Source: Chlamydiae bacterium RIFCSPHIGHO2_12_FULL_49_9 (GTDB lineage: Bacteria > Chlamydiota > Chlamydiia > Chlamydiales > SM23-39). From it: DNA of 29,945 bases. The stretch is taken from contig MGLY01000019.1 in assembly GCA_001794935.1 (NCBI GenBank), forward strand, positions 7,030 through 36,974. The letters run 5' to 3'. The position numbers and the translations under genes are program-made. How positions within the stretch are numbered: the stretch's first letter is position 1; each line of letters starts with the position of its first letter. Of the stretch, positions 5,401-18,468 are shown in pieces. The notes below the pieces were generated by a model. It saw only the letters and a program-made list of their open reading frames with translations, was not told where the DNA came from and ran no database searches.

Positions 5401-6620
5401 ATTTTGACTGCGCCTCCGATTTTTCTTGCCTGAATGGCGTGATGCAAGAGGGTTTTATCCCGATCGGGGGCGCGGTGCGCCACATTCAAAACCTGGAGCT
5501 CGTCTGGGATAAAAGGGGAACGATCTCTCTCGACTACATCCACCAGGGCAATTTAATCAAGATGGGACTCGACATCGCCTTTTCTCCCCAGATCGAGGGG
5601 CGCCTTACATTGGAAGATAGGCAAAATCCTCTTCAAGAGGGGGAAAGGGCGCTCACAATCGACTGGAAGTATGTAGAGAATAAAGGCGTCTCAATTGAGG
5701 CAATCGAGGGAATCTTTGGCGGGATCGACGCCTCTTTTCATGCGCAGAACGTAAATCGGCTGATTGGAAGCGCAAGGGTGAATTTCGAAGCGCTTGCTCC
5801 CTTTTTGCCTCCCGATGTAGCAGTTGTGTTCCAAGATCTCAAAATGGGCAAAGGCTATGAGCTAAAAGGGCATTTGGCTATTGATCGGCTCAGCTGCTCT
5901 TTTAGGGGAATTTTGAGCGGCAAGCAAATCGATCTTTTCGGCTATCAGTTTAGAACGCTTCTGGCGCAAGTGGATCTCGGCGCTGAAAAAATGCGTATCT
6001 ACGATCTCAAAATCAGCGACAGCTCCGGGACGATGAAAATCGACGATATCGTTTTAGAGGGAAAGGAAAATATCCCCTGGACGATCTCGATTCCTCAAAT
6101 TGCGATCCGCGAGTTTCGCCCAAGTCTTCTTCAAAAGCCGGGCGAGGCGCTGGGGCAGGTTGGCCCGCTTGTCGTGCGCGAGCTGAAGATCGTCGACTTC
6201 AAGGGACTTTTAGATGACGGCAGCACCTATATGGCAAAAGGGCAGCTCAACTTCATCAACTCGTTTAAAAGAGAGCATACCGTCTTCGATATTCCCTCAG
6301 ATGTCTTGAGCCGCATCGTCGGACTCGATCTCGATCTCCTCATTCCCGTCAGGGGGACGCTTTCCTATGAGCTCAAGGACGGACTTTTTCGCTTTACGGA
6401 GCTCAAGGGCGCATTTAGCGAAGGGGAGAGATCGGAGTTTTTCTTAGTCAGCGATGGGCTCTCTCCCTGCATGGACTTGGACGGCAATTTAAAGATTTTT
6501 GTTCAGATGAAGCAGTTTGTTCTATTCAAACTGACAGAGGCGTTTTTAATCTCGATTGACGGCACTCTCGACGATCCCAAATTCCATCTGCAGAAAAAGC
6601 GGGGCTTTTTAGGACTGTGA
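2424..6620 (+). CDS. Large (1398 aa) membrane-anchored beta-rich protein, AsmA/YhdP-like C-terminus
   Basis: ATG 2424. A single N-terminal hydrophobic helix is followed by long amphipathic beta-strand-like sequence, and the C-terminal ISIDGTLDDPKF resembles the AsmA-like terminal motif. The coding call is strong; the family is inferred. Confidence 0.6.
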   Translation: MARYRVFGFLGATLFLCAVFFQPIAKTLVGVSVRSALKWNGCGFAYRSIEFEKGRVVFNEPVLFDQAGEKSAFHARAEKASLLFDFSHFPKKLKGCLNIESPTVSLLSPCIGNGKRSGWFDLQVDVRDGTVEWPGLERAQFWYEKGAANQVGKLKLRWTDSDLCLEAIEESSGWKVDLDLKEIKAPSLQSLIRFYAPDPFQQVEIVDGTLSGSIFLVLKEGAVSETSCRLETKNLKIKTDQFELFSIDADCEWEGPVKGCTEGRLLGDFLPFAEDGRLRVSINGLNFESNGSSLEGLRGEISYNPGMGARWEIESVGFSRGTQFPFRWEGRGYFHKEMDNWLESRAFFGDASEVLFEGREQGKERSWTVNCRSLSSSMGTLLQALLSTQFDCASIEFLEGTLSANAQVYLKEDAISFWTAPHFAIEGADFRAGDFCFSCQKTEGKASLDGGEVALVSGAMEAPLLKGADWNGTCKWEGGVMSLSHFTGKIEDVEVSLDIEGALNCWKLNADLKGALCGKVASRLALQGKKLQFTVENGSLEGLEFKGAGWFENGVFAFASDEFHGKIDWLSRFHEDFDCVGRVASFEKGFFVEGNRSFYNWSLQAKIEEAKGNLFPETGFENLKMEIFAEPNFLAFYGIEADLVIPQGRIKIESPGLRKVGSDWDFDVRCKGKNWDPIRLAGSYLGEKVQIDSKKSHFFGAPFHIEEFDLEPNGDVARFDGRVEFPWSSAQAGSSFFKQLSIGTCLDLPFDGTLALQIHYAKEGGSEVSLEALNASWKGKPICLNMHGVEKEGLWEVDRFDCADFSASFSLEKEGKDFHIQAGKGSLGEGLETEFSGKVGLNDLTNMAIHCSFRLEKMELDLFEMNSMIPIGGLEGILRGNGHIAYSGKWEADLDFSAENLKAGPLELENQGPIHLYCSSEKGIFFSGLDLLVAKEPVNCKIELLQYDTARSHWIFKRSHMHLPADFLASFFNRGPAFLKALDPEHDLDFIADFDCASDFSCLNGVMQEGFIPIGGAVRHIQNLELVWDKRGTISLDYIHQGNLIKMGLDIAFSPQIEGRLTLEDRQNPLQEGERALTIDWKYVENKGVSIEAIEGIFGGIDASFHAQNVNRLIGSARVNFEALAPFLPPDVAVVFQDLKMGKGYELKGHLAIDRLSCSFRGILSGKQIDLFGYQFRTLLAQVDLGAEKMRIYDLKISDSSGTMKIDDIVLEGKENIPWTISIPQIAIREFRPSLLQKPGEALGQVGPLVVRELKIVDFKGLLDDGSTYMAKGQLNFINSFKREHTVFDIPSDVLSRIVGLDLDLLIPVRGTLSYELKDGLFRFTELKGAFSEGERSEFFLVSDGLSPCMDLDGNLKIFVQMKQFVLFKLTEAFLISIDGTLDDPKFHLQKKRGFLGL

Positions 6621-7231
6621 AACCTATTTTTAATTTGATTCTCGATTTTCTCTTTCCTCCTCTCTGTCTTTCTTGCAGCGAGAAAGTGGAGACGAAATTT
6701 CTTTGCCCTGCTTGCTGGGAGCTGTGCGCGCTGCCCGATCCGATTGAGCGGTGCCGCCACTGCTTTGAAGAGCTCGAAGAGGGGAGGGGAATGTGCGGAG
6801 AGTGTATGAAAGAGCCTCTGATAAAGACTCCAAGAGCTTTCGTTTTCGATAGAGGAGCTCCCATCCGCTTTAAGGTAGATCAGTTGGAGGGGTTTGCCGC
6901 TTTCATGATCTATCAGTGGATTCAGCTCGATTTGACATTGCCTGATTGGGTGATTCCGATGCCGGATCCGATTTCAAAAAAACTGGCCAAGGAGATCGCA
7001 AAAAGCCTTAGTGTTCGCTACGGCGAGCTCCTTCAGGAAAAAGGAGGAGAGATCAAGCTGAGAAAGGAATTGGAGGAGGATCTCGATCTTCTCCTCATCG
7101 ATTATTTAAGTCCGCTTTCCTGGCTTGACGGAGCGAGCTCGGCGATTTCTGTCTTGATGCCAAAGAGGGCTTTACTCCTCTCCCTTTTTCGAAACACATC
7201 GTCCCAGCCGGCCTGTCCCATAAACTCGTAG
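6617..7231 (+). CDS. ComF-family protein (double zinc ribbon + degenerate PRTase domain)
   Basis: LDFLFPPLCLSC..CPAC..CRHC..CGEC double zinc ribbon. The GTG start overlaps the upstream TGA. The PRPP-binding motif is degenerate (LLIDYLSP). Confidence 0.8.
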   Translation: MKPIFNLILDFLFPPLCLSCSEKVETKFLCPACWELCALPDPIERCRHCFEELEEGRGMCGECMKEPLIKTPRAFVFDRGAPIRFKVDQLEGFAAFMIYQWIQLDLTLPDWVIPMPDPISKKLAKEIAKSLSVRYGELLQEKGGEIKLRKELEEDLDLLLIDYLSPLSWLDGASSAISVLMPKRALLLSLFRNTSSQPACPINS

Positions 7232-7821
7232 CCTTTTGAGGCCAAAAAATATCTGATCTTCGATTCGTTAAAATTGTTTTCCACCTCGATGATCTCGATA
7301 TCGAATTTTTCAAAATCGATCGATTGGAGGATTTCAAATTCTCCTCCCTCCGTGTCCAGGCTTAAATAATCGACGTGGAAATAGCCGTTCTTTTCCAAAA
7401 TGTCATTCAATAAAAAGCACTCGACTGCAATCACATCGCAGCTATTGGTCGGAGCAGAATAGATTTCCGTGAGGGCTCGCCCTAAATGGGTAGGGTCATA
7501 GTAGTCGAGAAGCCCGCTCAGCATTTCCGGATAGCCTTTGATTCTCAAAAAGCGGCCTGTTCCCGCCTTATCCGAGATGCAGCCTTTGACACAGATGGAG
7601 GATCGATTTTTTTTGAGCTCTTCAAACACTTCGGGGATCGGCTCGATGCAAATCCCTTCCCAGCCGAGCTCTTCAAAGAATTTGGTATTGCTGAAAGTAA
7701 TTCCGTCATGCGCTCCAATGTCTATAAAAATACCCTTCGGTTTTTCTTTGAAGAAGCTCTCATAGATGTACTGATCTTGTCCGCACTGGCTGTAGAACGT
7801 AAGTAGGAGGATTGGAATCAT
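7102..7821 (-). CDS. FkbM-family SAM methyltransferase
   Basis: YSQCGQD, FIDIGAHDGITFSNT, GWEGICIEP, VDYLSLDTEGGEFEILQSIDF, IIEVENN. Start at ATG 7821 because longer starts overlap the divergent gene. Confidence 0.9.
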   Translation of the reverse strand: MIPILLLTFYSQCGQDQYIYESFFKEKPKGIFIDIGAHDGITFSNTKFFEELGWEGICIEPIPEVFEELKKNRSSICVKGCISDKAGTGRFLRIKGYPEMLSGLLDYYDPTHLGRALTEIYSAPTNSCDVIAVECFLLNDILEKNGYFHVDYLSLDTEGGEFEILQSIDFEKFDIEIIEVENNFNESKIRYFLASKGYEFMGQAGWDDVFRKRERSKALFGIKTEIAELAPSSQESGLK

Positions 7822-7858
7822 GCTTTTCCAAAAATGGGATTTGGCGTAGCATGCTGCC

Positions 7859-8827
7859 ATGCTTTTGATTATTTTTGCACTGATTGTCACTTTTGTCCTC
7901 TTTTCCAAAGGGTTTCGGATCGTGCCTCAACAAGAGGTTTGGATTGTCCAAAGACTCGGCAAGTTCAATCGCAGATTGGAGCCTGGACTCAATTGGACGA
8001 TCCCTTTTGTCGATGAGGTGGCCTATCGCCACTCTTTGAAAGAGGAGGCGATCGACGTCCCTGAGCAAATGGCGATCACTCAGGACAACGTAAGCGTTGT
8101 TCTCGACGGGATTGTCTACGTCAAAATCGTAGATCCCTCTGCAGCCTCCTATGGCGTCAAGAATCCCGTTTATGCATTGACTCAGCTCGTTCAGACAACC
8201 ATGCGATCAGAGATTGGAAAGATCCCTCTTGACAAGACGTTTGAAGAGAGAGAATCGCTCAATGCTCAAATTGTAGAGGCGATCAATGAAGCGGCCGTTT
8301 CCTGGGGCATCCGGTGTCTTCGCTACGAAATCCGCGACATTAAGATGCCCGCTGAGATCAGCAAAGCGATGGAGCTCCAAATGACAGCCGAGAGGCAAAA
8401 AAGAGCGCGCATCCTCGAGTCAGAAGGGCTGCGTCAGGCGCACATCAACGAATCGGAAGGGCAGCGCCAGTCTCAAATCAATATCGCCGAAGGGATGCGG
8501 GAGAAAACAGTCCTTGAATCAGAGGGAGCCCGCATTGCCAGAAGCAATCTCGCCAAAGGGGAGGCGGAAGCGATTTTTGCCCTCGCTGAAGCAGCAGCTT
8601 TGGGAATTGAGCGGGTTGCGAGTGCGCTTTCCCATGAATCTGCCGATAAGGCGGCTTCTTTACAGATCGCAGAAAAGTATGTAGAGGCGTTTCGCCATCT
8701 CGCCAAAGAGACCAATACGGTCATCTTGCCGTCCAATCTCCAGCATCCTGGCTCGATGGTGGCGGAGGCGATGTCGATCTACGACGCAGTCAAGAGAAAG
8801 CAACCCTCTCAACTCGCCGGCAAATGA
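7859..8827 (+). CDS. SPFH/band-7 stomatin-like protein, SLP-2/paraslipin type
   Basis: VPQQEVWIVQRLGKF, QLVQTTMRSEIGK, WGIRCLRYEIRDI, AERQKRARILESEG and C-terminal AEKYVEAFRHLAKETNTVILPSN (Band_7_C-like). Confidence 0.93.
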   Translation: MLLIIFALIVTFVLFSKGFRIVPQQEVWIVQRLGKFNRRLEPGLNWTIPFVDEVAYRHSLKEEAIDVPEQMAITQDNVSVVLDGIVYVKIVDPSAASYGVKNPVYALTQLVQTTMRSEIGKIPLDKTFEERESLNAQIVEAINEAAVSWGIRCLRYEIRDIKMPAEISKAMELQMTAERQKRARILESEGLRQAHINESEGQRQSQINIAEGMREKTVLESEGARIARSNLAKGEAEAIFALAEAAALGIERVASALSHESADKAASLQIAEKYVEAFRHLAKETNTVILPSNLQHPGSMVAEAMSIYDAVKRKQPSQLAGK

Positions 8828-9735
8828 GAATAGTCTGGTGTTTCCTTCTGCTCGCCTCTCATCTTCAGGCAATCCCGCAGTATTATTGCACAGCGGCAGA
8901 CAGCGGCTATTTCAAGCCCCTCATGGGGCTTATCGGCAGCATCCATGAGTCCAATTTTGACGACTTGGGAGAGATTGCGGTTTTTGATATCGGCCTTAAA
9001 AAAGAGGAAATCTCTCAGCTTGAAAATATCCAAAAGGTGCGCGTTTACCGAGTCGATACAGACAATCCCGATGTGCTCCACTTTTTTTATCCACCGAATG
9101 CTAGAAAAACGCTCGGCTGGTATTCGTGGAAGCCGATGGTTGTAAAACAATCGCTCGATCTGTTCCCTTATGTTCTTTGGATCGACGCCGCAGCAACGGT
9201 TTTGCGCCCTCTGAATAACCTCTTTGAATCGATCGTTAAAAATCGATACTTCCTTGTGACCATCGGCGACGAGAGAAAAGCCGATGGCAGCCCCGTTCAT
9301 TCGGTCGATTGGCAAACAAATGGTTTTTTAAGAGAGAAATTTCAGCTCGAAAAAGAGGAGAACCGATGGATTCTATCCCAAGATTGCGTTACCTCATGCA
9401 TTGTGGGAGCATCCCGAGAGGCGTGGGATGATTTTGTGGGGGATTGGTTTGAGGCAACGAAGGACTTGAGGAATTTTATCGACGACGGCATTCCTTATGG
9501 GTATGGGTGCGCAAGACACGACCAAGCCGTTTTGACTCTGATCGCCTACACCAAAAAGTTAACCATTTTCGATCAGGATTTTACTCAAAAAAACCCGATT
9601 GCCCTCGGAGAGGATCTTTTTTATATCACCTGGCACCATCTCTTTGTCGACGCAAAGACTTCGGTTTATAGTTCGAGACAAGACCTTCGAGCAGTGCCCT
9701 ATTTCTCATCTCGCATTCGCCTTAATTCTTTTTAA
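8824..9735 (+). CDS. Exported DUF1647-like putative glycosyltransferase
   Basis: Signal peptide MRIVWCFLLLASHLQA. Motifs TAADS..F, VFDIGL, YSWKPMVV, VLWIDAA and RHDQAVL match the DUF1647 pattern as recalled. ATGA overlap with the SPFH gene. Confidence 0.65.
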   Translation: MRIVWCFLLLASHLQAIPQYYCTAADSGYFKPLMGLIGSIHESNFDDLGEIAVFDIGLKKEEISQLENIQKVRVYRVDTDNPDVLHFFYPPNARKTLGWYSWKPMVVKQSLDLFPYVLWIDAAATVLRPLNNLFESIVKNRYFLVTIGDERKADGSPVHSVDWQTNGFLREKFQLEKEENRWILSQDCVTSCIVGASREAWDDFVGDWFEATKDLRNFIDDGIPYGYGCARHDQAVLTLIAYTKKLTIFDQDFTQKNPIALGEDLFYITWHHLFVDAKTSVYSSRQDLRAVPYFSSRIRLNSF

Positions 9736-10405
9736 AGACGAGACAGCGCACTCCCATCGACTCTTCTCTGATCCACTCGCAGCGCTGCATTAGAAAGGTC
9801 GTCGCTTTATTTTTCGTCGGCAGATCAGCTTGATTGAGCCAGATATAGCCTCCCTTCTTTACCTTTGGGTAATAGAGAGTGACGTCTTGAAGGCTCCCTT
9901 CGGCAGAGCAGTTGCCGTCGATGTAGAGAAAATCGATCTGTCCATCTAAAAAGAGAGCTGCCGCCTCTTCAGACAGTCGTCGAACCGGGCAGCAGTAATC
10001 TGACAGTTTTCGTTGATTGATGAGAGAGATGAAGTAGTGATTGATATAATTCATATCGATTCCTATCTGGCTCCACCAAGAGAGATAGGGGTGATTCGGT
10101 TCGAATCCCTTTTGGACGGCTTCATTGTCCCAGGCGTCGATTGCATAAACAACTCCTTGGCCCAAAAAACTCAGAGTTTGCGCGATCGGGTAGGTGCTTG
10201 ACCCTCCGAATGCGCCGATCTCAACGGAAATCAGCGGCTTGATTTCATAGACGAGATCCATCAGGCGATCTGCTTGATCCTTGGAGCACCAACCAGGAAT
10301 AAGGGGAAGATCTCTGGAGATTGTGTCTTCCTTGAATCGATCCCAAGATTGAGGATAGGCGCAAAGAGACATCGCAGCGGCGAGGAGAACTATTAACCTT
10401 TTCAT
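9722..10405 (-). CDS. Exported class I SAM methyltransferase (Methyltransf_24-like)
   Basis: Signal peptide MKRLIVLLAAAMSLCA; VEIGAFGGSS, VYAIDAW, IDFLYIDGNCS, KVKKGGYIWLN. The usual DGxH and DD positions read DGNC and NQ. Confidence 0.8.
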   Translation of the reverse strand: MKRLIVLLAAAMSLCAYPQSWDRFKEDTISRDLPLIPGWCSKDQADRLMDLVYEIKPLISVEIGAFGGSSTYPIAQTLSFLGQGVVYAIDAWDNEAVQKGFEPNHPYLSWWSQIGIDMNYINHYFISLINQRKLSDYCCPVRRLSEEAAALFLDGQIDFLYIDGNCSAEGSLQDVTLYYPKVKKGGYIWLNQADLPTKNKATTFLMQRCEWIREESMGVRCLVFKKN

Positions 10406-10486
10406 AAAATCCTTTTGAAGAGGGAAACTTCTAGAGGTTTTTTGAATTTGTGTCTATGTTCTTCCGCCTTTCCTACAGGTGAAAGT

Positions 10487-11422
10487 ATGAAACGGATTTT
10501 TCTTCTTTTTCTTTTTGCAGTTTCTCTGCGCGCCAAGACGATCGATGTGATCACACACTTTATGGATGATCTTTTTCTCGATTATAAAATCATCCATAAG
10601 GCCGGATACCAGATCCGGGTTGGGGAGATTGAGGACTATTGGAGAGGGCGCTCTCCTTTTGCCGAAGATCTCCAAAAGATTCTCGTTTTCAACCCGTTTA
10701 AAAATTATAACGATCTGACCTATCTGCCAAAGGAGAAGCTCGTCCTATTCGTCTGGGAGCCGGTTCAGCCTCCCGCATGGTATTACAATGCGTTTTCCCG
10801 AGTTTATACCTGGGACGATGCGCTCATCGATCAGGTCAAATTCTTTAAGTTTTATTATCCCCATATGGTGCCGATGCTTGCAAACCTCCCTCTATTCGAA
10901 GAGAAAAAGTTCTGTGCGATGATTGCAACCAACATCACTTTCGAAAGAAGGAAAATGATCGAATTTTTTGAAACAAAGCCGGATGAAGATTTTGAGTTTT
11001 ATGGAGCTCCGAAAGGGGATTTTGGCAAGCACAAAAACTACCGGGGGCCAATTCCCGGCAAACACTCAGGTCCCGAGAAAATTGAGGTTTTGAAAAATTA
11101 CAAATTTTGCGTCTGTTTTGAAAATTGCCACCACTTGCAAGGCTATGTTACCGAGAAGATTTTCGGTTGCTTTGCTGCAGGGTGCATCCCGATCTACTGG
11201 GGGGCTCCCAATATTGATAGCTATGTGCCGAGAGATTGCTACATCGACTATCGGGATTTTGCGAGCAAAGAACACCTCTACTACTATCTCAAAATGATGA
11301 CAAAAGAGGTCTATGAGCAGTATTTAAGCCGCATCCGCACCTATCTCAAAAGTCACAAGGCAGCCCTTTTTTCAAGAGAGTATTTTGAAAAAATCATCTG
11401 CGAGGCAGCCTCTAGCCATTAA
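10487..11422 (+). CDS. Exported GT10 (alpha-1,3/4-fucosyltransferase-like) glycosyltransferase
   Basis: GT10 motif KIEVLKNYKFCVCFEN..GYVTEKIFGCFAAGCIPIYWGAPNI..YIDYRDF. Signal peptide MKRIFLLFLFAVSLRA from ATG 10487. Confidence 0.9.
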   Translation: MKRIFLLFLFAVSLRAKTIDVITHFMDDLFLDYKIIHKAGYQIRVGEIEDYWRGRSPFAEDLQKILVFNPFKNYNDLTYLPKEKLVLFVWEPVQPPAWYYNAFSRVYTWDDALIDQVKFFKFYYPHMVPMLANLPLFEEKKFCAMIATNITFERRKMIEFFETKPDEDFEFYGAPKGDFGKHKNYRGPIPGKHSGPEKIEVLKNYKFCVCFENCHHLQGYVTEKIFGCFAAGCIPIYWGAPNIDSYVPRDCYIDYRDFASKEHLYYYLKMMTKEVYEQYLSRIRTYLKSHKAALFSREYFEKIICEAASSH

Positions 11423-12369
11423 TCGAGGAGCCTCTCGTGCGTGTCCGAGAGGCTCGGGACTGACGTGACGAGAAGATAACGGAGAGTGTAGAGGCGTATA
11501 TTGGGAACGAGGGCGATCTCGTGATCGATCGGCACGAACATTCCATGTTCTTTTTCAAATTGCAATATTTTTTCGATACCTGAGCGCCGAATGATCATCG
11601 AATGGGTTCTCATACGGCTGCCGATTTTTAGAAAATCGTTGCTGACGATCGTTCGTTTTGTGAGCTCGAACGGATTCGGAGGGGGAAGATCGGGTCTCCA
11701 GAAAAGATCCATTCGAAGCCCCCGGAGGTTGCTTTGAAAGTCGTTTTTTTCAGAGTAGATCCAGTAATCTTGGGTGTCGATATCGGTGTAAAGGACATCC
11801 CACCCCTCTTTGCCAACCAGCTCATCGAGCTTATCGATGAGATCGGCTAGATAGTGGGGGGTCGCTTTCACTGAGATATCATCTTCCAGAACCCAAATGG
11901 TCTCATAGCCTGAGTCATAGGCGTCTTGAAGAACCGATAAATGACTTAAGCTGCAACCGATCGCTCCAAGAGATGTGCAAGGAGAGAAAAAGGTGTTTCC
12001 GAAGCTCGATTCTCGAAGAAATTCAAACTCTCTTTCCCTGTTTTTCCGGTTCGGATACTGAATGGCCCACTGATAGAGCTCCATCCCGGGAGCAAATTTT
12101 ACCCCCACGTCATCGAGAACTTCTTTCGGAAGACCCCAACCGTACACTGCCGGCAATCGATGGGGGATGATCCCGTAGGTTTCGAGCTCTTTTAAAGAGA
12201 GGGCGAGCTTTTCAGGCCTTTGGTCGAGATTGATGAGATAAATGAAGTCGACGTTTCGGATCTGCTTCCCTTCAGATTTATTTTCTACTTTTCTAAAGCG
12301 CTTTTCCATTTCAGAGGCGCCTAGAGCGCTGCACAAAAGAACGAAGGCAAAAAAAACCGACTGTTTCAT
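11419..12369 (-). CDS. Exported GT25-family glycosyltransferase
   Basis: YLINLDQRPEK, RLPAVYG, GAIGCSLSHLSVL, IWVLEDD, PIDH. Signal peptide MKQSVFFAFVLLCSALGA. Confidence 0.88.
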   Translation of the reverse strand: MKQSVFFAFVLLCSALGASEMEKRFRKVENKSEGKQIRNVDFIYLINLDQRPEKLALSLKELETYGIIPHRLPAVYGWGLPKEVLDDVGVKFAPGMELYQWAIQYPNRKNREREFEFLRESSFGNTFFSPCTSLGAIGCSLSHLSVLQDAYDSGYETIWVLEDDISVKATPHYLADLIDKLDELVGKEGWDVLYTDIDTQDYWIYSEKNDFQSNLRGLRMDLFWRPDLPPPNPFELTKRTIVSNDFLKIGSRMRTHSMIIRRSGIEKILQFEKEHGMFVPIDHEIALVPNIRLYTLRYLLVTSVPSLSDTHERLLD

Positions 12370-12435
12370 TGACGAAAACGCTTTTTTTTTAAAGGGGTGT
12401 GGTTATACCCTTTTTCGCCAAATGAGGTCAAAGAA

Positions 12436-13299
12436 ATGAAACAACTTTTGCCCTTTCTCTTGATTTTTTCCTCTCTCTTTGGGGAGTGGGAAAAAGCGAA
12501 CTACAACTTTTCTCCCGAGCCGATCGATGTCGTGATCCCTTGCGCCCCAAAGGACGCGCCCCTTTTAGAGCTTTGTATTCAGAGGATTCGATTGCACGGA
12601 AAGAATATCCGGAGGGTGATCGTCGTTTCGAAAGAGCCGCTTACGGACTCTGCAGAGTGGTTTAACGAATTGGACTATCCGTTTACTAAAGAAGATGTGG
12701 CGTTGGAGATTTTTAAAGAAGATCGGAAGGCCTCAGCCGCTTTTTTGGATCACCCGAAAACGAGAATCGGCTGGATGCTGCAGCAGCTATTCAAGCTCTA
12801 TGCTCCTTTTGTGATCCCCGGCATCTCATCGAATGTCCTTGTGTTGGATGCTGATGTTCTTTTTGTTCAGCCAACAGTTTTTATGACTGATAGCGGAAAT
12901 CCTCTTTTTGCTCTTGCCATCGAATATAACCCCGAATATTTCCATCACGCCTCTCGGCTCTTGCCTGGTTTTAAGAGAGTGGGCGGCTATTCGGGAATAG
13001 CCCACCACATGCTATTTCAAAGGGCTGTCCTCGAGGATCTCTTCCAAAACATCAAAGATATTCACAGAGTAGAGCCTTGGAGAGCGATCTGCCGTGCGGT
13101 CGATTTAAAAAGTGTTTTTCTCTCTCCTTTTTCCGAATATGAGATCTACTTTAACTTCATTTTAAAAAAGAGCGATCAGGCTATTTTGCGCTATCTGCCC
13201 TTCATCGACATCGACTCGATTGAAAAGGCATCTCTTTTTCACGATCCGGGATATGTATTTGTCACATCCCACTCCTACAACAGGAAAAACCATGAATAA
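12436..13299 (+). CDS. Exported GT-A fold protein (DUF6492-like)
   Basis: IDVVIP..KD..LLELCI, GWMLQQLFKL, LVLDADV (DxD), FSEYEIYFNF. Signal peptide MKQLLPFLLIFSSLFG; GAGGT upstream of ATG 12436. Confidence 0.7.
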   Translation: MKQLLPFLLIFSSLFGEWEKANYNFSPEPIDVVIPCAPKDAPLLELCIQRIRLHGKNIRRVIVVSKEPLTDSAEWFNELDYPFTKEDVALEIFKEDRKASAAFLDHPKTRIGWMLQQLFKLYAPFVIPGISSNVLVLDADVLFVQPTVFMTDSGNPLFALAIEYNPEYFHHASRLLPGFKRVGGYSGIAHHMLFQRAVLEDLFQNIKDIHRVEPWRAICRAVDLKSVFLSPFSEYEIYFNFILKKSDQAILRYLPFIDIDSIEKASLFHDPGYVFVTSHSYNRKNHE

Positions 13300-13939
13300 A
13301 TGTCTTTTTCTATACTTAAGTTTTTCCCTTTTTGCTGAAGATCTTCACGAGGAGGTATTCTCCCATATTTATCGAAACAAAATCTGGGGGGTGAATGGAG
13401 AAGGGGAGGGGGGTTCCGGCGGCGGGTCTCTTCTGGAAAATGTTCAGCCCTACATGAGATATCTCGAAAAATTCATGAGAGAAAATGAGATCCGAAGCGT
13501 TGTCGATGCCGGGTGCGGCGATTGGGAATTTTCAAAATACATCGATTGGGAAGGGATCGACTATTTAGGCCTGGATGTTGTCCTTTTTGTCATTGAGAAA
13601 AACCAAAAGAGATACGGAAAATCCCACATTCGATTTGCCCACGCAAACTTTTTGACGGCGGACTTGCCGAAGGCCGATCTTTTTATCTGCAAGCATGTGT
13701 TTCAGCACCTGACGAACCGAGATATTTTGGCTTTTTTACCCAAGCTTTCCAAGTTTAAATACTGTTTGATTACAAATGAGGTGGATCCCCGTACTTTTTC
13801 GAGCGACAATCCCGATATCGATGTGGGGGGAGGGCATAAGATCGATCTCTCCCGCTCTCCTTTTTTCATTCAGGGAACAAAAATTCTCAATTTCTACATT
13901 GGAAGCTCGCTCCATCAAGTGTTTTTGATAAAAAATTAG
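13292..13939 (+). CDS. Exported class I SAM methyltransferase
   Basis: F..IY.NKIWG...SGGGS, SVVDAGCGDW, YLGLDVV, ADLFICKHVFQHL. Signal peptide MNKCLFLYLSFSLFA from ATG 13292. Confidence 0.85.
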   Translation: MNKCLFLYLSFSLFAEDLHEEVFSHIYRNKIWGVNGEGEGGSGGGSLLENVQPYMRYLEKFMRENEIRSVVDAGCGDWEFSKYIDWEGIDYLGLDVVLFVIEKNQKRYGKSHIRFAHANFLTADLPKADLFICKHVFQHLTNRDILAFLPKLSKFKYCLITNEVDPRTFSSDNPDIDVGGGHKIDLSRSPFFIQGTKILNFYIGSSLHQVFLIKN

Positions 13940-14940
13940 TGAATGGGAACGACGATTTTGATCGGCTGCGGGAATTTTAGGTCGACATTCATTTGAAGAA
14001 GGATCTTGTCGATTAAGACTTGATTTTGAGTTCCTCGTTTAAAGTGGTAGGGCGACGCAACAATCTGGTAGGGAAATAGCTTCGATGCCATGAGGCTGTA
14101 ACTTGAATCGCTTCGGATTAAACAGTCGAACTGCGCCATCGAGAAAAAATCCTCGAGAACATTTCTATTCGGGGTATTCCCGAGTTTTCGACAATCAAAC
14201 TCGATATCGAGCCCCTTGCAGCTTGCCGCAAATAGCGCGAGGATAGCTGCCGGATTTGAGTAGTCGGTAAATAGATAGACATAGAGGGGTTTTGGGATGT
14301 TTTTAGCGAGGAGATGAAGGGCATTGATGTAGTAGGCGGGAGGAGGGCCTTTCATCGGCCAGAGCGCTGTGAACCTGGCCCATGAAGATTCTTCTCCCTC
14401 GCCCGTTCTCACATGGACTGCAACCGTCATGCAGTCCGCCGGCAGATCGAACTTTGGGATAGGGATCAGGGGAGCGATTTCCCTCTGAAGTTGCGCTGAG
14501 AATTTGGGATCATCCCAGTTGACTTGGGTCCAGACAGGAAAACAATTCGGCGTATCAAAATCCTGAGACGTTTCTGGATAAAAAGGGATGTCGATTCGAA
14601 TCGGTCCCCTCTCTGAATCTATATTCCAAAGATTTAAAAAATCTCCCTCTGATTGAAGGGTCAAAACTCTCTCTATCGATGCTTGGGGGGGGAGGGTTCG
14701 ATCGAGAGCGAGGAGATGGGAATAGGGAAATGGGGTGTAGATAAGGGGGACGTCGAGGATGTAAGAAATCCACTTCCCATGAGCGTAAGCCAAAAGATTA
14801 TCTCCAAAGCGGCCGCCGCTTAAAGTGTAAGAAACAGCAGACCCTTCTCCCAATTCTGCCTCTAGAAATGGGCAGTTTAAAAAGATTAAAAGGGCAAAGA
14901 GAGTTGAACCTAAAATTTTAGTGAGATAGGTTCTTCTCAT
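13936..14940 (-). CDS. Exported GT11 (alpha-1,2-fucosyltransferase)-like protein
   Basis: GGRFGDNLLAYA (cf. GRLGNQLFQYA), VAVHVRTG (cf. HVRRGD), YYINAL and DFFSMAQFDCLIRSDSSYS (cf. D..LMS.C.H.IIANSSFS). N-terminal signal peptide. Confidence 0.65.
   Translation of the reverse strand: MRRTYLTKILGSTLFALLIFLNCPFLEAELGEGSAVSYTLSGGRFGDNLLAYAHGKWISYILDVPLIYTPFPYSHLLALDRTLPPQASIERVLTLQSEGDFLNLWNIDSERGPIRIDIPFYPETSQDFDTPNCFPVWTQVNWDDPKFSAQLQREIAPLIPIPKFDLPADCMTVAVHVRTGEGEESSWARFTALWPMKGPPPAYYINALHLLAKNIPKPLYVYLFTDYSNPAAILALFAASCKGLDIEFDCRKLGNTPNRNVLEDFFSMAQFDCLIRSDSSYSLMASKLFPYQIVASPYHFKRGTQNQVLIDKILLQMNVDLKFPQPIKIVVPIH
14906..14933 (-). mobile_element. 28-bp internally deleted derivative of the 17005-17173 palindromic element
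   Basis: Minus strand AAGAACCTATCTCACTAAAATTTT matches the element left end plus flank at 23/24 nt, then fuses to AGGTTCAA (right end plus flank). Flanked by AA/AA like the full copy. Confidence 0.7.
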
Positions 14941-15806
14941 TTTGTTCTATAAGAGTCGATGAGATGCGTCCAATAATCGAGGCGAAGAGGCTCGAGCGAA
15001 AAAGTTTTTTTCGAGAGCTCTTCATATTTTTGATTCAAAAATTCCTCTGTAACGCTCTCCCAATGATCGATCAAAACAACCGGTAGACCTTCATAGACCG
15101 CATCGATAGTCGATCTTTTTACGATTGGATAGGCGCCGAGATAAAGAGACTCCCAGAGACGGTGGGTGTCAATGCCGTTGCCCCTTGGGCTCAATACGAA
15201 CTTTGAATCGGCCAAATCTCTTAGGTAAGCAGCGAAATTTTTGCCCTGCGAGCTATAGCAAAAGGGAGCGCTTGAGAAAAGCCTCCAGACATCCGCTCTT
15301 TCTAAAAAGTAGTTGCTGACAGTCAAATTGTAATAGAGGAGATGTGTTTTTGGCCCTACTTTGGTCCACTCGATCAGCTCCGCTTTTCCGTGAGGCCATT
15401 CATAGTTGGCGATTCCGATGGGAATCGGATGGAGCTTGGGATGATTTGCCCATTCGATATTCATCGCAAACCAAGCGATGAGTTTGGGATCCTCGAGATA
15501 CTCTCCCCATGATCTGGGCGCCCCATAGTCTGAATTGTGAGTGATGAGAATATAGCGATGTTGAATTTGTGGATGGAAATATTGAAAGAAATGACCTGTA
15601 TAATCGGTTTTTACAAAAATCACGCTCCCTTCAAAAACTTCCTTCGGAACAATCGTGTTTTGATGCTCGTCAAAGACAAAGTCGGCAAAGACTCTAAATC
15701 CATCCCCCGAGATAAAAGGGGGGAAAGCCCTTCGATTGTGAACATGCTCCGGGAAGGGAACCCCAAAAACAAATAAGGGGAAAAGGAGGAGCGCAAGATA
15801 TGCCAC
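14937..15806 (-). CDS. Exported exostosin/GT47-like glycosyltransferase
   Basis: YILITHNSD, HPKLHPIPIGIAN and YLRDLADSKFVLSPRGNGIDTHRLWESLYLGAYPIV (exostosin-like C-terminal motif). Signal peptide MAYLALLLFPLFVFG. Confidence 0.7.
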   Translation of the reverse strand: MAYLALLLFPLFVFGVPFPEHVHNRRAFPPFISGDGFRVFADFVFDEHQNTIVPKEVFEGSVIFVKTDYTGHFFQYFHPQIQHRYILITHNSDYGAPRSWGEYLEDPKLIAWFAMNIEWANHPKLHPIPIGIANYEWPHGKAELIEWTKVGPKTHLLYYNLTVSNYFLERADVWRLFSSAPFCYSSQGKNFAAYLRDLADSKFVLSPRGNGIDTHRLWESLYLGAYPIVKRSTIDAVYEGLPVVLIDHWESVTEEFLNQKYEELSKKTFSLEPLRLDYWTHLIDSYRTK

Positions 15807-15807
15807 T

Positions 15808-15882
15808 TCAGGATCTCTTGATATTATTTGGGTACTTGCCCAGATCTCCTCCGGATTCGAAAAAAAAGAGGAGAGAGAGCAT
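15808..15882 (-). pseudogene. 24-codon remnant of an internally deleted paralog of the 17180-17764 methyltransferase
   Basis: Reads MLSLLFFFESGGDLGKYPNNIKRS*. FESGGDLGKYPNNI versus FEPGGDAGEYPNNI is 11/14 identical. Same RBS context (AAGAGGAATCA-ATG vs AAGAGGAACGA-ATG) and near-identical promoter. Confidence 0.8.
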
Positions 15883-15919
15883 TGATTCCTCTTGAGAGGT
15901 TTTCTTAAAAAGATCTGAG

Positions 15920-15948
15920 ACTATAAGATTTAAATCCGTTGTTGTCAA
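15920..15948 (-). promoter_or_regulatory. sigma66/sigma70-type promoter TTGACA-17-TATAGT
   Basis: Minus strand -35 at 15948-15943 and -10 at 15925-15920, with a 17-nt spacer. Confidence 0.8.
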
Positions 15949-15970
15949 AAATTTCTTTCGCCTCTACAGT
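15942..15970 (+). promoter_or_regulatory. sigma66/sigma70-type promoter TTGTCA-17-TACAGT
   Basis: -35 at 15942-15947 and -10 at 15965-15970, 24 nt upstream of ATG 15995. Its -35 overlaps that of the divergent promoter. Confidence 0.65.
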
Positions 15971-15994
15971 ATGCCGCTTTCTGGAGGAAAAATA

Positions 15995-16972
15995 ATGCTT
16001 CGATTGGCTCTATTCTTGTTTATGGCAACGGCTCTCTTTGGCCAATCGTTCGTGTTTGTGCATATCGGGCCGAATATGCCTGCCTATTTAGCATCCGCAA
16101 TCCGCCAAGTGAGGCTCTTCAATAAAGAGTGGCCGATTTATGTCATTGCTCCGAAAGATGAGTTAAAAAAGCTCCCGTCGGGCCTTTTTCACACTTCCGT
16201 CCCGATTGAAACGGTTCCGATCAGCCCGGAGCACGAACGATTTCATGCTGAAGGGGTTCAGTCGGGATTTTGGAGATACACGACAGAGAGATTTTTCTAT
16301 CTTGAGTCGTTTATCAAACAAAATGAGATGAAAGACGTCTTTCATTTGGAAAACGATATCATGCTCTATTGCGACGTCAGCAAAATGCTTCCCGTTTTTC
16401 AGACTTATTATCGAGGGATGATCGGAGGAACTTTTGACAATGACACCCGATGTATCGCAGGTTTTGTCTATATATCGGGATCAGCGCCTCTTGAAAAATT
16501 CGTTCGCTACGTCGCTGAAATGGCAAGATTCGGTGCGAATGACATGATTTTGCTCGGAAATTTCAGAAACGCATATCACAGAGTCTATGCTGAGTATTTG
16601 CCGGTTATTTTGCCGAACTATGATCTCCCTTTTCAAAATGCTCTCGGCTCTAAAGCTCGAAATCCGGCGCTCTATTATACCTGTTTTGAGCAGTTTGGTT
16701 CGATTTTCGATGCGGCGGCCTTTGGTCAATACATCGGCGGAAATGATCCAATTCACCCAAAAGCCAGGCCCGGGTTTATCAGTGAAAGTTCCATCTTCAA
16801 TCCGTCGCTTTTTGGATTTGAGTGGGAAAAAGATGATGAGGGGAGACAAGTTCCCTATGTCTCTTATAAGGATCAACGCTGCAGGCTGAACAATCTGCAC
16901 GTCCACTGCAAAAATTTAGGGGCCTTTTCTTCGCTTAACAGCCAGATGCCGACACTCGGACTTCACAGGTAA
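15995..16972 (+). CDS. Exported hypothetical protein, putative GT-A glycosyltransferase
   Basis: GGAGG RBS; signal peptide MLRLALFLFMATALFG. Motifs FWRYTTERFFYL, VFHLENDIMLY (ExD), FDAAAFGQYIGG, LNNLHVHCK. Confidence 0.55.
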   Translation: MLRLALFLFMATALFGQSFVFVHIGPNMPAYLASAIRQVRLFNKEWPIYVIAPKDELKKLPSGLFHTSVPIETVPISPEHERFHAEGVQSGFWRYTTERFFYLESFIKQNEMKDVFHLENDIMLYCDVSKMLPVFQTYYRGMIGGTFDNDTRCIAGFVYISGSAPLEKFVRYVAEMARFGANDMILLGNFRNAYHRVYAEYLPVILPNYDLPFQNALGSKARNPALYYTCFEQFGSIFDAAAFGQYIGGNDPIHPKARPGFISESSIFNPSLFGFEWEKDDEGRQVPYVSYKDQRCRLNNLHVHCKNLGAFSSLNSQMPTLGLHR

Positions 16973-17002
16973 AAAAAGGGGGCAAGGAAGAACTCTTGTC
17001 CC
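16971..17002 (-). terminator. Possible intrinsic terminator between convergent genes
   Basis: 8-bp stem GGGGCAAG/CTTGTCCC (one non-Watson-Crick pair) with an 8-nt loop, followed by a 7-T tract on the minus strand. Confidence 0.45.
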
Positions 17003-17004
17003 AA

Positions 17005-17173
17005 GAACCTATCTCAATAAAATTTTTCGTCGATTTTCGAGATTATTTTGGCCGATTTTCGATCCAAATTTGGGGGGCCATATCAACAAGAGTATATTAC
17101 CCCCCAAATTTGGATCGAAAATCGGCTCAAAAGAACTCGAAAATCGACTGAAACTTTTTATTGAGATAGGTTC
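17005..17173. mobile_element. 169-bp palindromic MITE/RPE-like element (family 1, GAACCTATCTCAAT ends)
   Basis: Arms 17005-17077 and 17100-17173 are inverted repeats with perfect blocks of 18, 13 and 27 bp and a 22-nt spacer. AA direct repeat on both flanks. Confidence 0.85.
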
Positions 17174-17179
17174 AAGTCT

Positions 17180-17764
17180 CTAAGAGCGCCTTTTCACTTG
17201 AGCTACAAGGATATTATTCGGATATTCGCCAGCATCTCCTCCCGGTTCAAACGAAATCTCATACTCGGGATTGATCTCGAGCACTTTTTTGACGATCTCT
17301 TCGAGAGTTAAGTAATCAAAGAGAATGGTTCTACAGCAATGGAGATCATCGATAAGGATTGTGTGTGTCTTGATCGAGTGGCGCTTGATCTGCTCTAGCT
17401 CTTCGATGAGGGGTGTGTTTTTTCCTCCGTGTGGATCAGGAGTTCCTAGATGGCCATCCAGCCAGAAGGTGATCTCTTCTTGAATTGGTTCGATCACTTC
17501 CCAGAGTTGATAGGAGGAGTCTCTATGCCAAATGGTCACTCGGGGGTTTTTATTAAACCGCTTTCTACAGTGATTGACAAGTTGCGGCTCAATTTCTAAA
17601 GAGTGGATGTACTCAAATCCCGCTCTTAAGGCCATGCGGATTCCATTGCCCATGTATGATCCAGTTTCGACAAAATATCGGTTGGGGTGAGCACGAAATC
17701 CCTGTGGGCCCATATTCCCAAAAAAAAGAGAGGGGATCAGACTGAGAAAAAATAAAACGCGCAT
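17180..17764 (-). CDS. Exported class I SAM methyltransferase-like protein
   Basis: YFVETGSYMG, IHSLEI, RDSS, TFWLDGH, TPLIEEL..I, ILIDD. Signal peptide MRVLFFLSLIPSLFFG. Confidence 0.75.
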   Translation of the reverse strand: MRVLFFLSLIPSLFFGNMGPQGFRAHPNRYFVETGSYMGNGIRMALRAGFEYIHSLEIEPQLVNHCRKRFNKNPRVTIWHRDSSYQLWEVIEPIQEEITFWLDGHLGTPDPHGGKNTPLIEELEQIKRHSIKTHTILIDDLHCCRTILFDYLTLEEIVKKVLEINPEYEISFEPGGDAGEYPNNILVAQVKRRS

Positions 17765-17874: not shown

Positions 17875-18468
17875 TTAGAATCCTGCGCCGACAGACAGTT
17901 CAGCGAAAGTCTTTGGAAGGGAGCCAGTTTGTGTAGCTGCAAGCGTTGCTTGGCCCACATCGAGCTGAGCGAATCCGCGGATAGCGCCTTTGCGGTTCAT
18001 TTCATAGCCAAGAGCTACGTTGGAGACGAGTCCCTGGAATCTCTCTGTCTCTTCTGTAGCTGTGCTCTTAATCCAGCCCCATGCGAGACCTGCGCCTGCA
18101 TAAAAGCTCTGGTTTTGAGCTGCGCTCAAGTAGTGGAAGTAGTTCACTTTTGGGAGCGATGCCACATAGCGCTCTGGGCCTCTGTTGTAGTTCGCAGAGA
18201 TATCGATTGCAGATGCGCCCGACACAATGCGGTAGCCGATGCCAAGACCAGGAATGGCATCTCGGTTGGAGAGCTCATTCAGTTTGGAATCAGATACGTC
18301 CATGCGGATGTAAGCAAAAGAAGGATTCGCTTCTTCTACTTTTGGCAGTGGAGCTGCGATTTCAATAGGCGCTGCTGCAATGAGCGCAGGCTGTTCAACA
18401 GCTGCTTCTTGGGCGAACCCAAAAGAACTGGCGATAGTCAATAGTGATGTTGCGATTGTTTTTTTCAT
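17875..18468 (-). CDS. Small outer-membrane beta-barrel protein
   Basis: Signal peptide MKKTIATSLLTIASSFGFA, Ala/Pro-rich linker, amphipathic strands (GLGIGYR, SFYAGAGLAWG, VALGYE) and terminal ..LSVGAGF with C-terminal Phe. Confidence 0.75.
   Translation of the reverse strand: MKKTIATSLLTIASSFGFAQEAAVEQPALIAAAPIEIAAPLPKVEEANPSFAYIRMDVSDSKLNELSNRDAIPGLGIGYRIVSGASAIDISANYNRGPERYVASLPKVNYFHYLSAAQNQSFYAGAGLAWGWIKSTATEETERFQGLVSNVALGYEMNRKGAIRGFAQLDVGQATLAATQTGSLPKTFAELSVGAGF

Follow-up and report, generated by a model that had tools for sequence, protein, structure and literature searches.

The window analysed here is a stretch of 29,945 nucleotides from Chlamydiae bacterium RIFCSPHIGHO2_12_FULL_49_9, and unlabelled positions below count within it. 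It carries a dense block of genes for glycosyltransferases (GTs) and S-adenosylmethionine (SAM) methyltransferases, most of which begin with a short Sec-type leader. The block at 8824-17764, together with an FkbM-type gene at 7102-7860, is best explained as an accessory glycan-tailoring island in a conserved chlamydial neighbourhood. Textbooks place bacterial GTs that use nucleoside diphosphate (NDP) sugars, and SAM methyltransferases, in the cytoplasm because their donors are there, and bacteria are not known to decorate a surface glycan from outside the cytoplasm with enzymes of this class. We consider it fairly probable that the island's enzymes are exported and that they use SAM and nucleotide sugars of the host to tailor an extracytoplasmic glycan. 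The source genome, G000 below, is a 1.32-Mb chlamydial metagenome-assembled genome (MAG) of 93 contigs that is 79% complete, and the window corresponds to G000:C19:7030-36974. Other G-numbers denote comparison genomes, among them G005 from the same family and G024 from the same order, and C-numbers denote contigs.

The island comprises 11 enzyme-like open reading frames (ORFs). Ten of these lie between a band-7 gene and a gene for a small outer membrane protein (OMP)-like product (8824-17764, about 9 kb), and the FkbM gene lies just to the left of band-7. Seven are GT-like, namely a GT10 (g5), a GT25 (g6), a GT11-like enzyme (g9), a GT47/RXYLT1-like enzyme (g10), a DUF6492 protein with a Stealth/GT-A fold (g7) and members of two unnamed GT-A families (g3 and g11); the other four are SAM methyltransferases. 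Six of the 11 ORFs score above Pfam cut-offs (FkbM, Methyltransf_24, GT10, GT25, DUF6492 and a class I methyltransferase). NCBIfam gave no useful match for ten island proteins, and the ESM-Atlas feature and structure assignments of g3, g9 and g11 are to be taken as leads only. An earlier note on this DNA, made from its letters alone, had proposed seven GT-like and four methyltransferase-like genes at this place. All 11 ORFs are present, with Pfam, structural or Atlas support, and the proteins matched GT and methyltransferase folds, not the other folds that the note had named as evidence against its reading. The contents of the window likewise bear out its observation that no flippase, polymerase, ABC exporter or nucleotide-sugar synthesis gene is found there. 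With no priming transferase, flippase or ABC exporter, polymerase or ligase, or NDP-sugar genes, the window does not qualify as a Wzx/Wzy or ABC-dependent O-antigen or capsule locus.

The leaders are found on ten of the 11 enzymes. They are 15-28 residues long and share one build, in which the initial methionine is followed by lysine or arginine, then by 10-16 hydrophobic residues, and finally by an alanine or glycine. All ten leaders quoted in the earlier note are present in the sequence once three starts have been moved to internal ATGs (10487, 12436 and 13292); the FkbM product has the merely stubby hydrophobic start that was described for it. A basic residue occurs near the N-terminus (within residues 2-3) in nine of the ten leaders, the hydrophobic regions (h-regions) span 10-16 residues, position -1 is A or G in all ten, and the residues after the leader are neutral or acidic. 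At the sites where we guess that cleavage occurs, L, V or F usually occupies position -3, an acceptable though atypical choice. We rejected the possibility that the products are lipoproteins, since no canonical lipobox was seen by eye in the ten leaders. A signal peptidase I (LepB; TIGR02227) scores above cut-off in G000 and in four relatives.

Leaders were scored with a strict home-made rule for the N-terminal h-region, an earlier lax rule having been dropped because it flagged 36% of ORFs. The strict rule selects 10/11 island enzymes against 14% of 1267 crude ORFs of the genome (20% when multi-transmembrane proteins are counted). Binomial arithmetic on these counts gives values of about 1e-6 to 3e-8, with the limit that the genes of one island are not independent. 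As the rule is imperfect, we put the main weight on comparative evidence.

Strict and relaxed versions of the rule were applied to the best-matching homologues of each family. Among the best 120 of 277 homologues of g11, 87 passed the strict and 111 the relaxed version. The corresponding numbers were 94 and 112 for the best 120 of 2325 homologues of g12, and 97 and 113 for the best 120 homologues in the DUF6492 family of g7. In the GT10 family, 111 of the best 150 cluster representatives at 50% identity passed the strict rule (74%) and 128 the relaxed rule (85%), with h-region lengths peaking at 13-16 residues. For GT25, 24 of the 32 ORFs in the top loci passed the strict rule and several others had visible leaders. 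Failures were mostly N-terminal fragments or leaders holding one polar residue. Across the g7, g11, g12, GT10 and GT25 families, then, the presence of a leader is maintained even though its sequence changes. The variable leader of the g12 family runs up to an invariant N-[MI]-G-P-x-G-F, which reads NMGPQGF at the mature N-terminus of g12 itself; in the g11 family, L/F-rich positions yield to A/S 3-5 residues before the first strand. Two orthologous islands (G005:C14 and G024:C3) bear a leader on essentially every gene, and these leaders have unrelated sequences. Hundreds of homologues, at 40-60% identity, keep the catalytic motifs without variation: GT25 has EDD, g11 has E-x-D, DUF6492 has DxD and g12 has the G-rich motif I.

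According to their database names, the homologues come from Chlamydiales, Rhabdochlamydiaceae, Parachlamydiaceae, Babeliales/Dependentiae and 'Verrucomicrobiota' MAGs. GT25 genes occur in 162 of 401 sampled Chlamydiota genomes (40%), often in multiple copies, against 1 of 14 control genomes, and none of 72,556 plasmids matched GT25 by tblastn. Relatives of g11 are also encoded on 249 IMG/VR contigs, many of them giant-virus MAGs. All 49 distinct viral ORFs extracted from these are leaderless and begin 1-8 residues before the same strand; the six that passed the strict rule did so only since the strand itself was counted. The contrast with leaderless homologues draws on these viral sequences and on general knowledge of free-living bacteria.

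Two trivial explanations of the leaders were considered and rejected. Mis-called starts are ruled out by the conservation of leaders in homologues and by plausible start contexts. The leaders are also not the first strand of a Rossmann or GT-A domain, because Pfam domains begin 20-60 residues later or the strand comes after the leader. Sequence comparison supports the view that the leaders are real, selected and lineage-specific additions, rather than products of chance or of mis-called starts. Fusions of GT25 to GT10 and of FkbM to GT10 carry one leader, at the very N-terminus. As a side observation, the GT10 domain was seen fused to FkbM, to GT25 and within one 1775-aa multi-domain protein (P0373, P0376 and P0383); the single N-terminal leader was seen in P0373 and P0376, the two fusions whose N-termini were inspected.

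The earlier note had also taken the block to be accessory, and comparison with relatives agrees. In six of them (G005, G006, G009, G012, G001 and G018) the gene order is TamB-like, comF-like, band-7, OMP and dnaA, and the band-7 and OMP genes are directly adjacent, 30-130 bp apart. This adjacency indicates that the block of G000 is an insertion: 9 kb have been inserted between band-7 and OMP, and the FkbM gene at the other side of band-7. The GC content of the island (45.4%) is below that of the flanks (49.5-50%) and of the genome (48.6%). The FkbM gene is a small insertion of its own, placed between comF-like and band-7 where the relatives have no gene, and its reading frame continues into the 3' end of the comF-like gene, which fits a recent insertion. 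The comF-like gene (6617-7231) and the FkbM gene (7102-7860) are convergent and overlap by about 130 bp. In G015 (contig C5; L010:11465-14152), the band-7/OMP junction holds a different insert of 2.8 kb with two paralogues of about 309 aa and one gene of 204 aa, none of them GTs or methyltransferases. A different insert at the same junction suggests that the junction is a hot spot for accessory DNA.

Island-type genes are not confined to this locus. Searches with the island proteins (phmmer) recovered at least 28 such genes in G000, nearly all of them leader-bearing, on contigs C19, C38, C60, C65 and C78, and the genome has at least four sister loci. The one on C38 is immediately preceded by two tandem, GPT-rich collagen-repeat genes (L138:1-2687), the first of which is cut by the contig start so that only its C-terminal part is present. 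The complete product has 679 aa, a leader and four G-X-Y runs of up to 141 residues. The Collagen model scores 186.7 bits here, and both products have BclA_C-like ends, whose scores of 31.2 and 22.3 bits do not reach the cut-off of 38. The next genes downstream are a GT92, a GT25, an MT24, a TPR protein, a GH130-like gene, an FkbM, a GT47-like gene and another GT25. Of 401 Chlamydiota genomes, 151 have collagen-repeat genes, compared with 2 of the 14 controls, and those inspected mostly have signal peptides. From partial match lists, a GT25 within 12 kb of a collagen gene was also found in G193, G160, G070 and G194. These associations make the collagen-repeat, BclA-like proteins a candidate acceptor. 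Elsewhere, the GT25 genes of the G024 island (contig C3; L017:9443-14472) flank three tandem paralogues of 520-555 aa, which have signal peptides and could be acceptors or lectins.

The presence of Sec leaders would also fit secreted effectors. Such enzymes would leave the cell by Sec and then by type II secretion or in vesicles, and their targets would be molecules of the host or of the vacuole membrane, in the host cytosol or the vacuole, where NDP-sugars and SAM abound. Glycosyltransferase effectors are secreted by many intracellular bacteria, and the host cytosol would supply all donors. Secretin homologues, of type II or type III secretion, are present in G000 and its relatives. This explanation is nonetheless unlikely. 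The genomes hold dozens of paralogous GTs each, along with methyltransferases of sugar type (TylF/CmcI-like and FkbM), in arrangements like those of glycan-assembly loci; exported collagen-like proteins adjoin the enzymes, and multi-enzyme fusions exist. Assembly-type gene content, collagen neighbours and fusions fit the building of a complex methylated glycan better than the modification of host proteins.

Other glycan enzymes of the same genome are of conventional kind. ManC, Gmd (537 bits), two GT4s, a sugar C-methyltransferase, RmlBCD-like proteins and several short-chain dehydrogenases/reductases (SDRs) are encoded on C80, C82, C5 and C88, and all are leaderless. A leader is therefore no general property of glycan enzymes in G000. 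The leaderless cluster on C80 (L133) consists of a protein predicted to have eight transmembrane segments, a Methyltransf_14 sugar C-methyltransferase, a GT4-like gene, manC, a GT4 and gmd, and lies beside a gene for L-2-hydroxyglutarate oxidase; the predicted 8-segment protein of G000 has no Pfam or NCBIfam match. The earlier statement that nucleotide-sugar synthesis genes are lacking thus holds for the window and not for the genome, which has ManC, Gmd and RmlBCD-like proteins elsewhere. A check for gmd and fcl, which the earlier note had proposed, was answered in part: Gmd is present in G000 and no Fcl scored above cut-off in any of five genomes. We rejected the idea of an exported Gmd in G000, its N-terminus being leaderless.

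These findings bear on the possibility of conventional assembly at the inner leaflet. The leaders would then be uncleaved tethers, and enzymes facing the cytoplasm would extend a lipid-linked precursor of lipooligosaccharide (LOS) or O-antigen from the cell's own NDP-sugars and imported SAM, the product being flipped and ligated by genes elsewhere. The leaderless ManC, Gmd, RmlBCD-like and GT4 enzymes and the predicted 8-segment protein would suit such a pathway, and the donors are certainly available in the cytoplasm. In free-living bacteria, moreover, GT10, GT11 and GT25 are cytoplasmic enzymes of LOS and O-antigen synthesis. We regard this as quite improbable, however, given the form of the leaders. 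Positive charge stands before and not after the hydrophobic stretch, and the A/G end is followed by neutral or acidic residues, a charge pattern that predicts an N-in, C-out topology. The stretch of 10-16 residues is too short for a stable span, the fold of the g11 family begins 2-4 residues past it with no stem, and the conventional GTs of G000 lack such a segment. Finally, it is very unlikely that the island is decaying or non-catalytic cargo, acquired recently from giant viruses or hosts, with export or anchoring being accidental, as all 11 ORFs are intact, the catalytic motifs are invariant and the AlphaFold2 (AF2) models are confident, despite the GC content below that of the flanks, the mobile palindrome inside the island and the degenerate N-terminus of FkbM.

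Export of the island enzymes raises the question of donor supply. In G000, G005, G218, G024 and G121, two of them 99% complete, we found no metK, a gene that 10 of 14 control genomes possess. Several NTT nucleotide transporters are present in all five genomes checked and in none of the controls. Import of SAM by a drug/metabolite transporter (DMT) is established in C. trachomatis (PMC3104491). With no metK found and this precedent for import, SAM and nucleotides from the host must pass through the outer membrane and the periplasm, and nucleotide sugars may do likewise. A search for a nucleotide-sugar transporter, which the earlier note had recommended, found none above cut-off in G000; the only candidate, an EamA/DMT protein, was rejected at 25.1 bits against a cut-off of 27. 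In G005 (contig C56; L159:1432-3629), an SDR of epimerase/dehydratase type and a protein of the UDP-glucose/GDP-mannose dehydrogenase family have leaders ahead of their Rossmann domains. Leaders on enzymes that modify NDP-sugars make little sense unless the compartment to which the enzymes are targeted contains nucleotide sugars.

A scheme for the island would run as follows. Its products would be Leloir-type GTs (GT10, GT11-like, GT25, GT47-like and three GT-A-type families) and SAM methyltransferases, each with a short, cleavable Sec signal peptide. They would be translocated over the inner membrane and cleaved by signal peptidase I, and would then act in the periplasm, on the cell surface or in the lumen of the vacuole. 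There they would add sugars of fucose and galactose type and methyl groups, step by step, to an acceptor that has already been exported. The likeliest acceptors would be collagen-repeat, BclA-like fibre proteins such as those near the sister island on C38, with LOS as an alternative. SAM and nucleotide sugars would come from the host and might enter the periplasm by the route of imported ATP, NAD and SAM. Cleavage, compartment, extracytoplasmic activity, donor source and acceptor are all things we infer.

Several points weigh against this scheme. No bacterium is known to have nucleotide sugars at hand in its periplasm. The cell's own cytoplasmic GDP-mannose/Gmd and dTDP-rhamnose enzymes fit a conventional cytoplasmic pathway. 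Position -3 of the leaders is mostly L, V or F and not A, so the true cuts may lie a few residues away from the guessed ones, or some leaders could be retained as anchors. The leader rule, which is home-made, can be misled by Rossmann N-termini, such as those of a UDP-glucose dehydrogenase and an SDR. The window itself has no collagen-like gene, and the link to this acceptor is by paralogy only; the BclA_C matches fall under the Pfam cut-off, and tallies of GT25 versus collagen genes are poorly matched from family to family (42/69 versus 15/69 in f1, and 16/46 versus 38/46 in f18). The genome is 79% complete, and the scheme is drawn from sequence and predicted structures. The earlier claim that the set works outside the cytoplasm with host donors therefore stands in part. 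Leaders, their conservation and the accessory nature of the block speak for it, with export itself being what we infer; exclusive use of host donors is not forced, since the genome has its own ManC, Gmd, Rml and GT4 set and a conventional pathway coexists.

To the left of the enzyme genes lie nqrC, nqrB, a gene for a 1404-aa TamB-like protein and a gene for a comF-like zinc-ribbon protein. The FkbM-type SAM methyltransferase follows on the minus strand (7102..7860; PF05050, FkbM/Methyltransf_21, 69.4 bits). Its start is uncertain, with an ATG at 7860 or at 7821, and its stubby hydrophobic stretch abuts a YSQCGQD motif. The left border of the island is formed by an SPFH/band-7 protein with an N-terminal anchor (7859..8827, plus strand; Pfam Band_7 and Band_7_C). 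This is a core gene outside the island, syntenic in relatives and 68-77% identical in the same-family relatives compared (60% in G007).

The first gene of the block, g3 (8824..9735, plus strand), overlaps the band-7 stop with its start (ATGA). Its product is GT-A-like (DUF1647/GT8-like), is 303 aa long and starts with a 16-aa leader ending in HLQA. The assignment is by Atlas similarity, with a feature score of 0.96 to a DUF1647 cluster and a template modelling (TM) score of 0.69 to DUF1647 and GT models; Pfam, NCBIfam and PDB sequence searches gave no match. The next gene, g4 (9722..10405, minus strand), is a Methyltransf_24 of the TylF/CmcI-like sugar O-methyltransferase type (PF13578, 52.3 bits) with a 16-aa leader ending in SLCA, and has paralogues on C38 and C65. 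It is followed by g5 (10487..11422, plus strand), with a 16-aa leader ending in SLRA, which belongs to CAZy family GT10 of alpha-1,3/4-fucosyltransferases (PF00852, 64.8 bits against a cut-off of 23.9). A GT25 assignment applies to g6 (11419..12369, minus strand), which has an 18-aa leader ending in ALGA, a PF01755 score of 39.1 bits against a cut-off of 24 and a DxD-type motif; this conserved EDD motif, E162-D163-D164, is invariant in 16 sequences.

The DUF6492 protein g7 (12436..13299, plus strand; PF20102) has a 16-aa leader ending in SLFG, a GT-A/Stealth-like fold and an invariant DxD. Its AF2 model has a mean confidence (pLDDT) of 94.3, and the nearest PDB structures are CpsY and GNPTAB, followed by GT8 and GT6 enzymes. 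Judging from the model, g7 may be a sugar-1-phosphate transferase instead of a glycosyltransferase. A class I SAM methyltransferase, g8 (13292..13939, plus strand), with a 15-aa leader ending in SLFA, scores 25.5 bits with Methyltransf_11 against a cut-off of 21.2. For g9 (13936..14940, minus strand), a putative GT-B variant resembling alpha-1,2-fucosyltransferases with a 28-aa leader ending in FLEA, the Atlas feature score is 0.96 to a GT11 cluster and TM scores are 0.58-0.63 to GT11-named models. No Pfam match at E<=0.1, including Glyco_transf_11, and no PDB sequence match was obtained, and we therefore label it GT11-like and not a GT11 member. Its paralogues on C78 and on G005:C14 are likewise leader-bearing. 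A GTG start and a 15-aa leader ending in VFG are found in g10 (14937..15806, minus strand), which is called GT47/RXYLT1-like on sub-threshold matches to RXYLT1_C and Exostosin (20.4 and 19.4 bits, below the cut-offs). A paralogue on C38, which matches g10 at E 7e-36, scores 41.8 bits against the RXYLT1_C cut-off of 27.

The last GT-like gene, g11 (15995..16972, plus strand), belongs to an unnamed GT-A family with an invariant E-x-D. Its 16-aa leader, ending in LFG, directly precedes the first beta-strand. Atlas TM scores are 0.81-0.87 to Nucleocytoviricota clusters; Pfam gave no match, and a PDB sequence search gave merely weak lectin matches (E>=0.02). The small methyltransferase g12 (17180..17764, minus strand; 194 aa) has a 16-aa leader ending in LFFG. 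Its AF2 model has a pLDDT of 90, with low confidence for residues 1-20, and Foldseek returned only SAM methyltransferases as top PDB matches (E about 1e-7, TM 0.5-0.6). No Pfam model matches the family; the predicted fold together with an invariant motif I, E-T-G-x-x-x-G, places it among the class I SAM methyltransferases.

Between g11 and g12 lies a 169-bp palindromic repeat element (17005..17173, no strand assigned), found by DNA search of relatives. It matches both strands and has dozens of copies, 75-91% identical and often at contig ends, in G000 and in at least 10 other genomes of the same family. Copies in G000 are on contigs C12, C14, C24, C47, C76, C85 and C87, and those in relatives are in G001, G002, G003, G005, G006, G009, G012, G013, G015 and G018. 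The element looks like a mobile repeat of the miniature inverted-repeat transposable element (MITE) or repetitive extragenic palindrome (REP) kind that fragments assemblies. The right border of the island is the gene for the small OMP-like protein (17875..18468, minus strand), which has a classical signal peptide and is a core gene by synteny. Beyond it are dnaA, a TPR gene, DUF5399, the genes mraZ-rsmH-ftsI-murE-amiA and an ankyrin protein.

Full-text searches of the literature turned up no account of Leloir GTs or methyltransferases with signal peptides in Chlamydiae, and none that ties collagen-like proteins of chlamydiae to GTs. One precedent is the glycogen pathway of C. trachomatis, whose enzymes work in the inclusion lumen on host UDP-glucose (PMC4829429). 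In this system (GlgA, GlgB and others; Gehre et al. 2016, PMC4829429), as in the scheme proposed here, Leloir GTs act beyond the bacterial cytoplasm on a host nucleotide sugar, and the principle is thus feasible in the phylum. It differs in using type III secretion with no signal peptide, in making an alpha-glucan store and in obtaining UDP-glucose by the host transporter SLC35D2. The island has none of the GlgA/B/X/P or MalQ families and has Sec-type leaders instead. Known extracytoplasmic glycan modification in bacteria relies on GT-C enzymes with polyprenyl-phosphate sugar donors (PMC11127046). There too, sugars are added after export on the periplasmic side, but the donors are lipid-linked and the enzymes integral to the membrane, whereas the island enzymes belong to soluble GT-A and GT-B Leloir families with DxD-type motifs.

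Loci for the outer core of LOS and for O-antigen (Helicobacter Lewis antigens, and Lic2A/LgtB of Haemophilus and Neisseria) have the same CAZy families in a variable accessory cluster. The GT10, GT11 and GT25 enzymes of Helicobacter, Haemophilus and Neisseria are leaderless and cytoplasmic. In contrast, the GTs of the island are all leader-bearing, and the window lacks a priming transferase, flippase, polymerase and ligase. The exosporium system of BclA in Bacillus is similar in that the GPT-rich collagen protein on C38, with its sub-cut-off BclA_C-like end, stands beside GT and methyltransferase genes. However, the Bacillus enzymes act in the cytoplasm of the mother cell, whereas the chlamydial organism is Gram-negative and intracellular and its enzymes bear leaders. 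Glycosylation sets of giant viruses (Nucleocytoviricota; PMC9614988) have in common with the chlamydial genes the g11, GT25, GT47-like and FkbM-type enzymes as well as collagen-like fibre proteins, but the viral homologues are leaderless and presumably work in the host cytoplasm or the viral factory. The eukaryotic GTs of the endoplasmic reticulum and Golgi (FUT3-7/9 in GT10, FUT1/2 in GT11, COLGALT1 in GT25, and exostosin/RXYLT1) come from the same families and are directed to a non-cytosolic compartment by an N-terminal hydrophobic segment; the eukaryotic GT25 acts on collagen. They are mostly type II anchored with a stem and are served by nucleotide-sugar transporters, whereas the segments of the island enzymes are short and resemble signal peptides.

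More broadly, we tentatively suggest that environmental chlamydiae, and apparently Dependentiae too, might possess a Golgi-like, soluble Leloir system of glycosylation and methylation outside the cytoplasm. It would draw on nucleotide sugars, NAD and SAM of the host that permeate the periplasm or vacuole, employ dozens of Sec-exported enzymes (in some genomes including enzymes that modify NDP-sugars) and build a methylated coat containing fucose and galactose on exported collagen-like fibres. If the enzymes are exported and active, obligate intracellular bacteria would have moved glycan assembly outside the cell by way of a metabolite-rich host. This would account for glycosylation of a collagen-like surface fibre that has already passed through Sec, and would define a large, unannotated and fast-evolving class of genes, two families of which have no Pfam model. 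It would also link the glycan machineries of chlamydiae and giant viruses, which have amoebal hosts in common. Such a Golgi-like pathway would constitute a third bacterial route to glycoconjugates, beside the cytoplasmic Leloir route and the periplasmic route that uses lipid-linked donors (GT-C enzymes and oligosaccharyltransferases).

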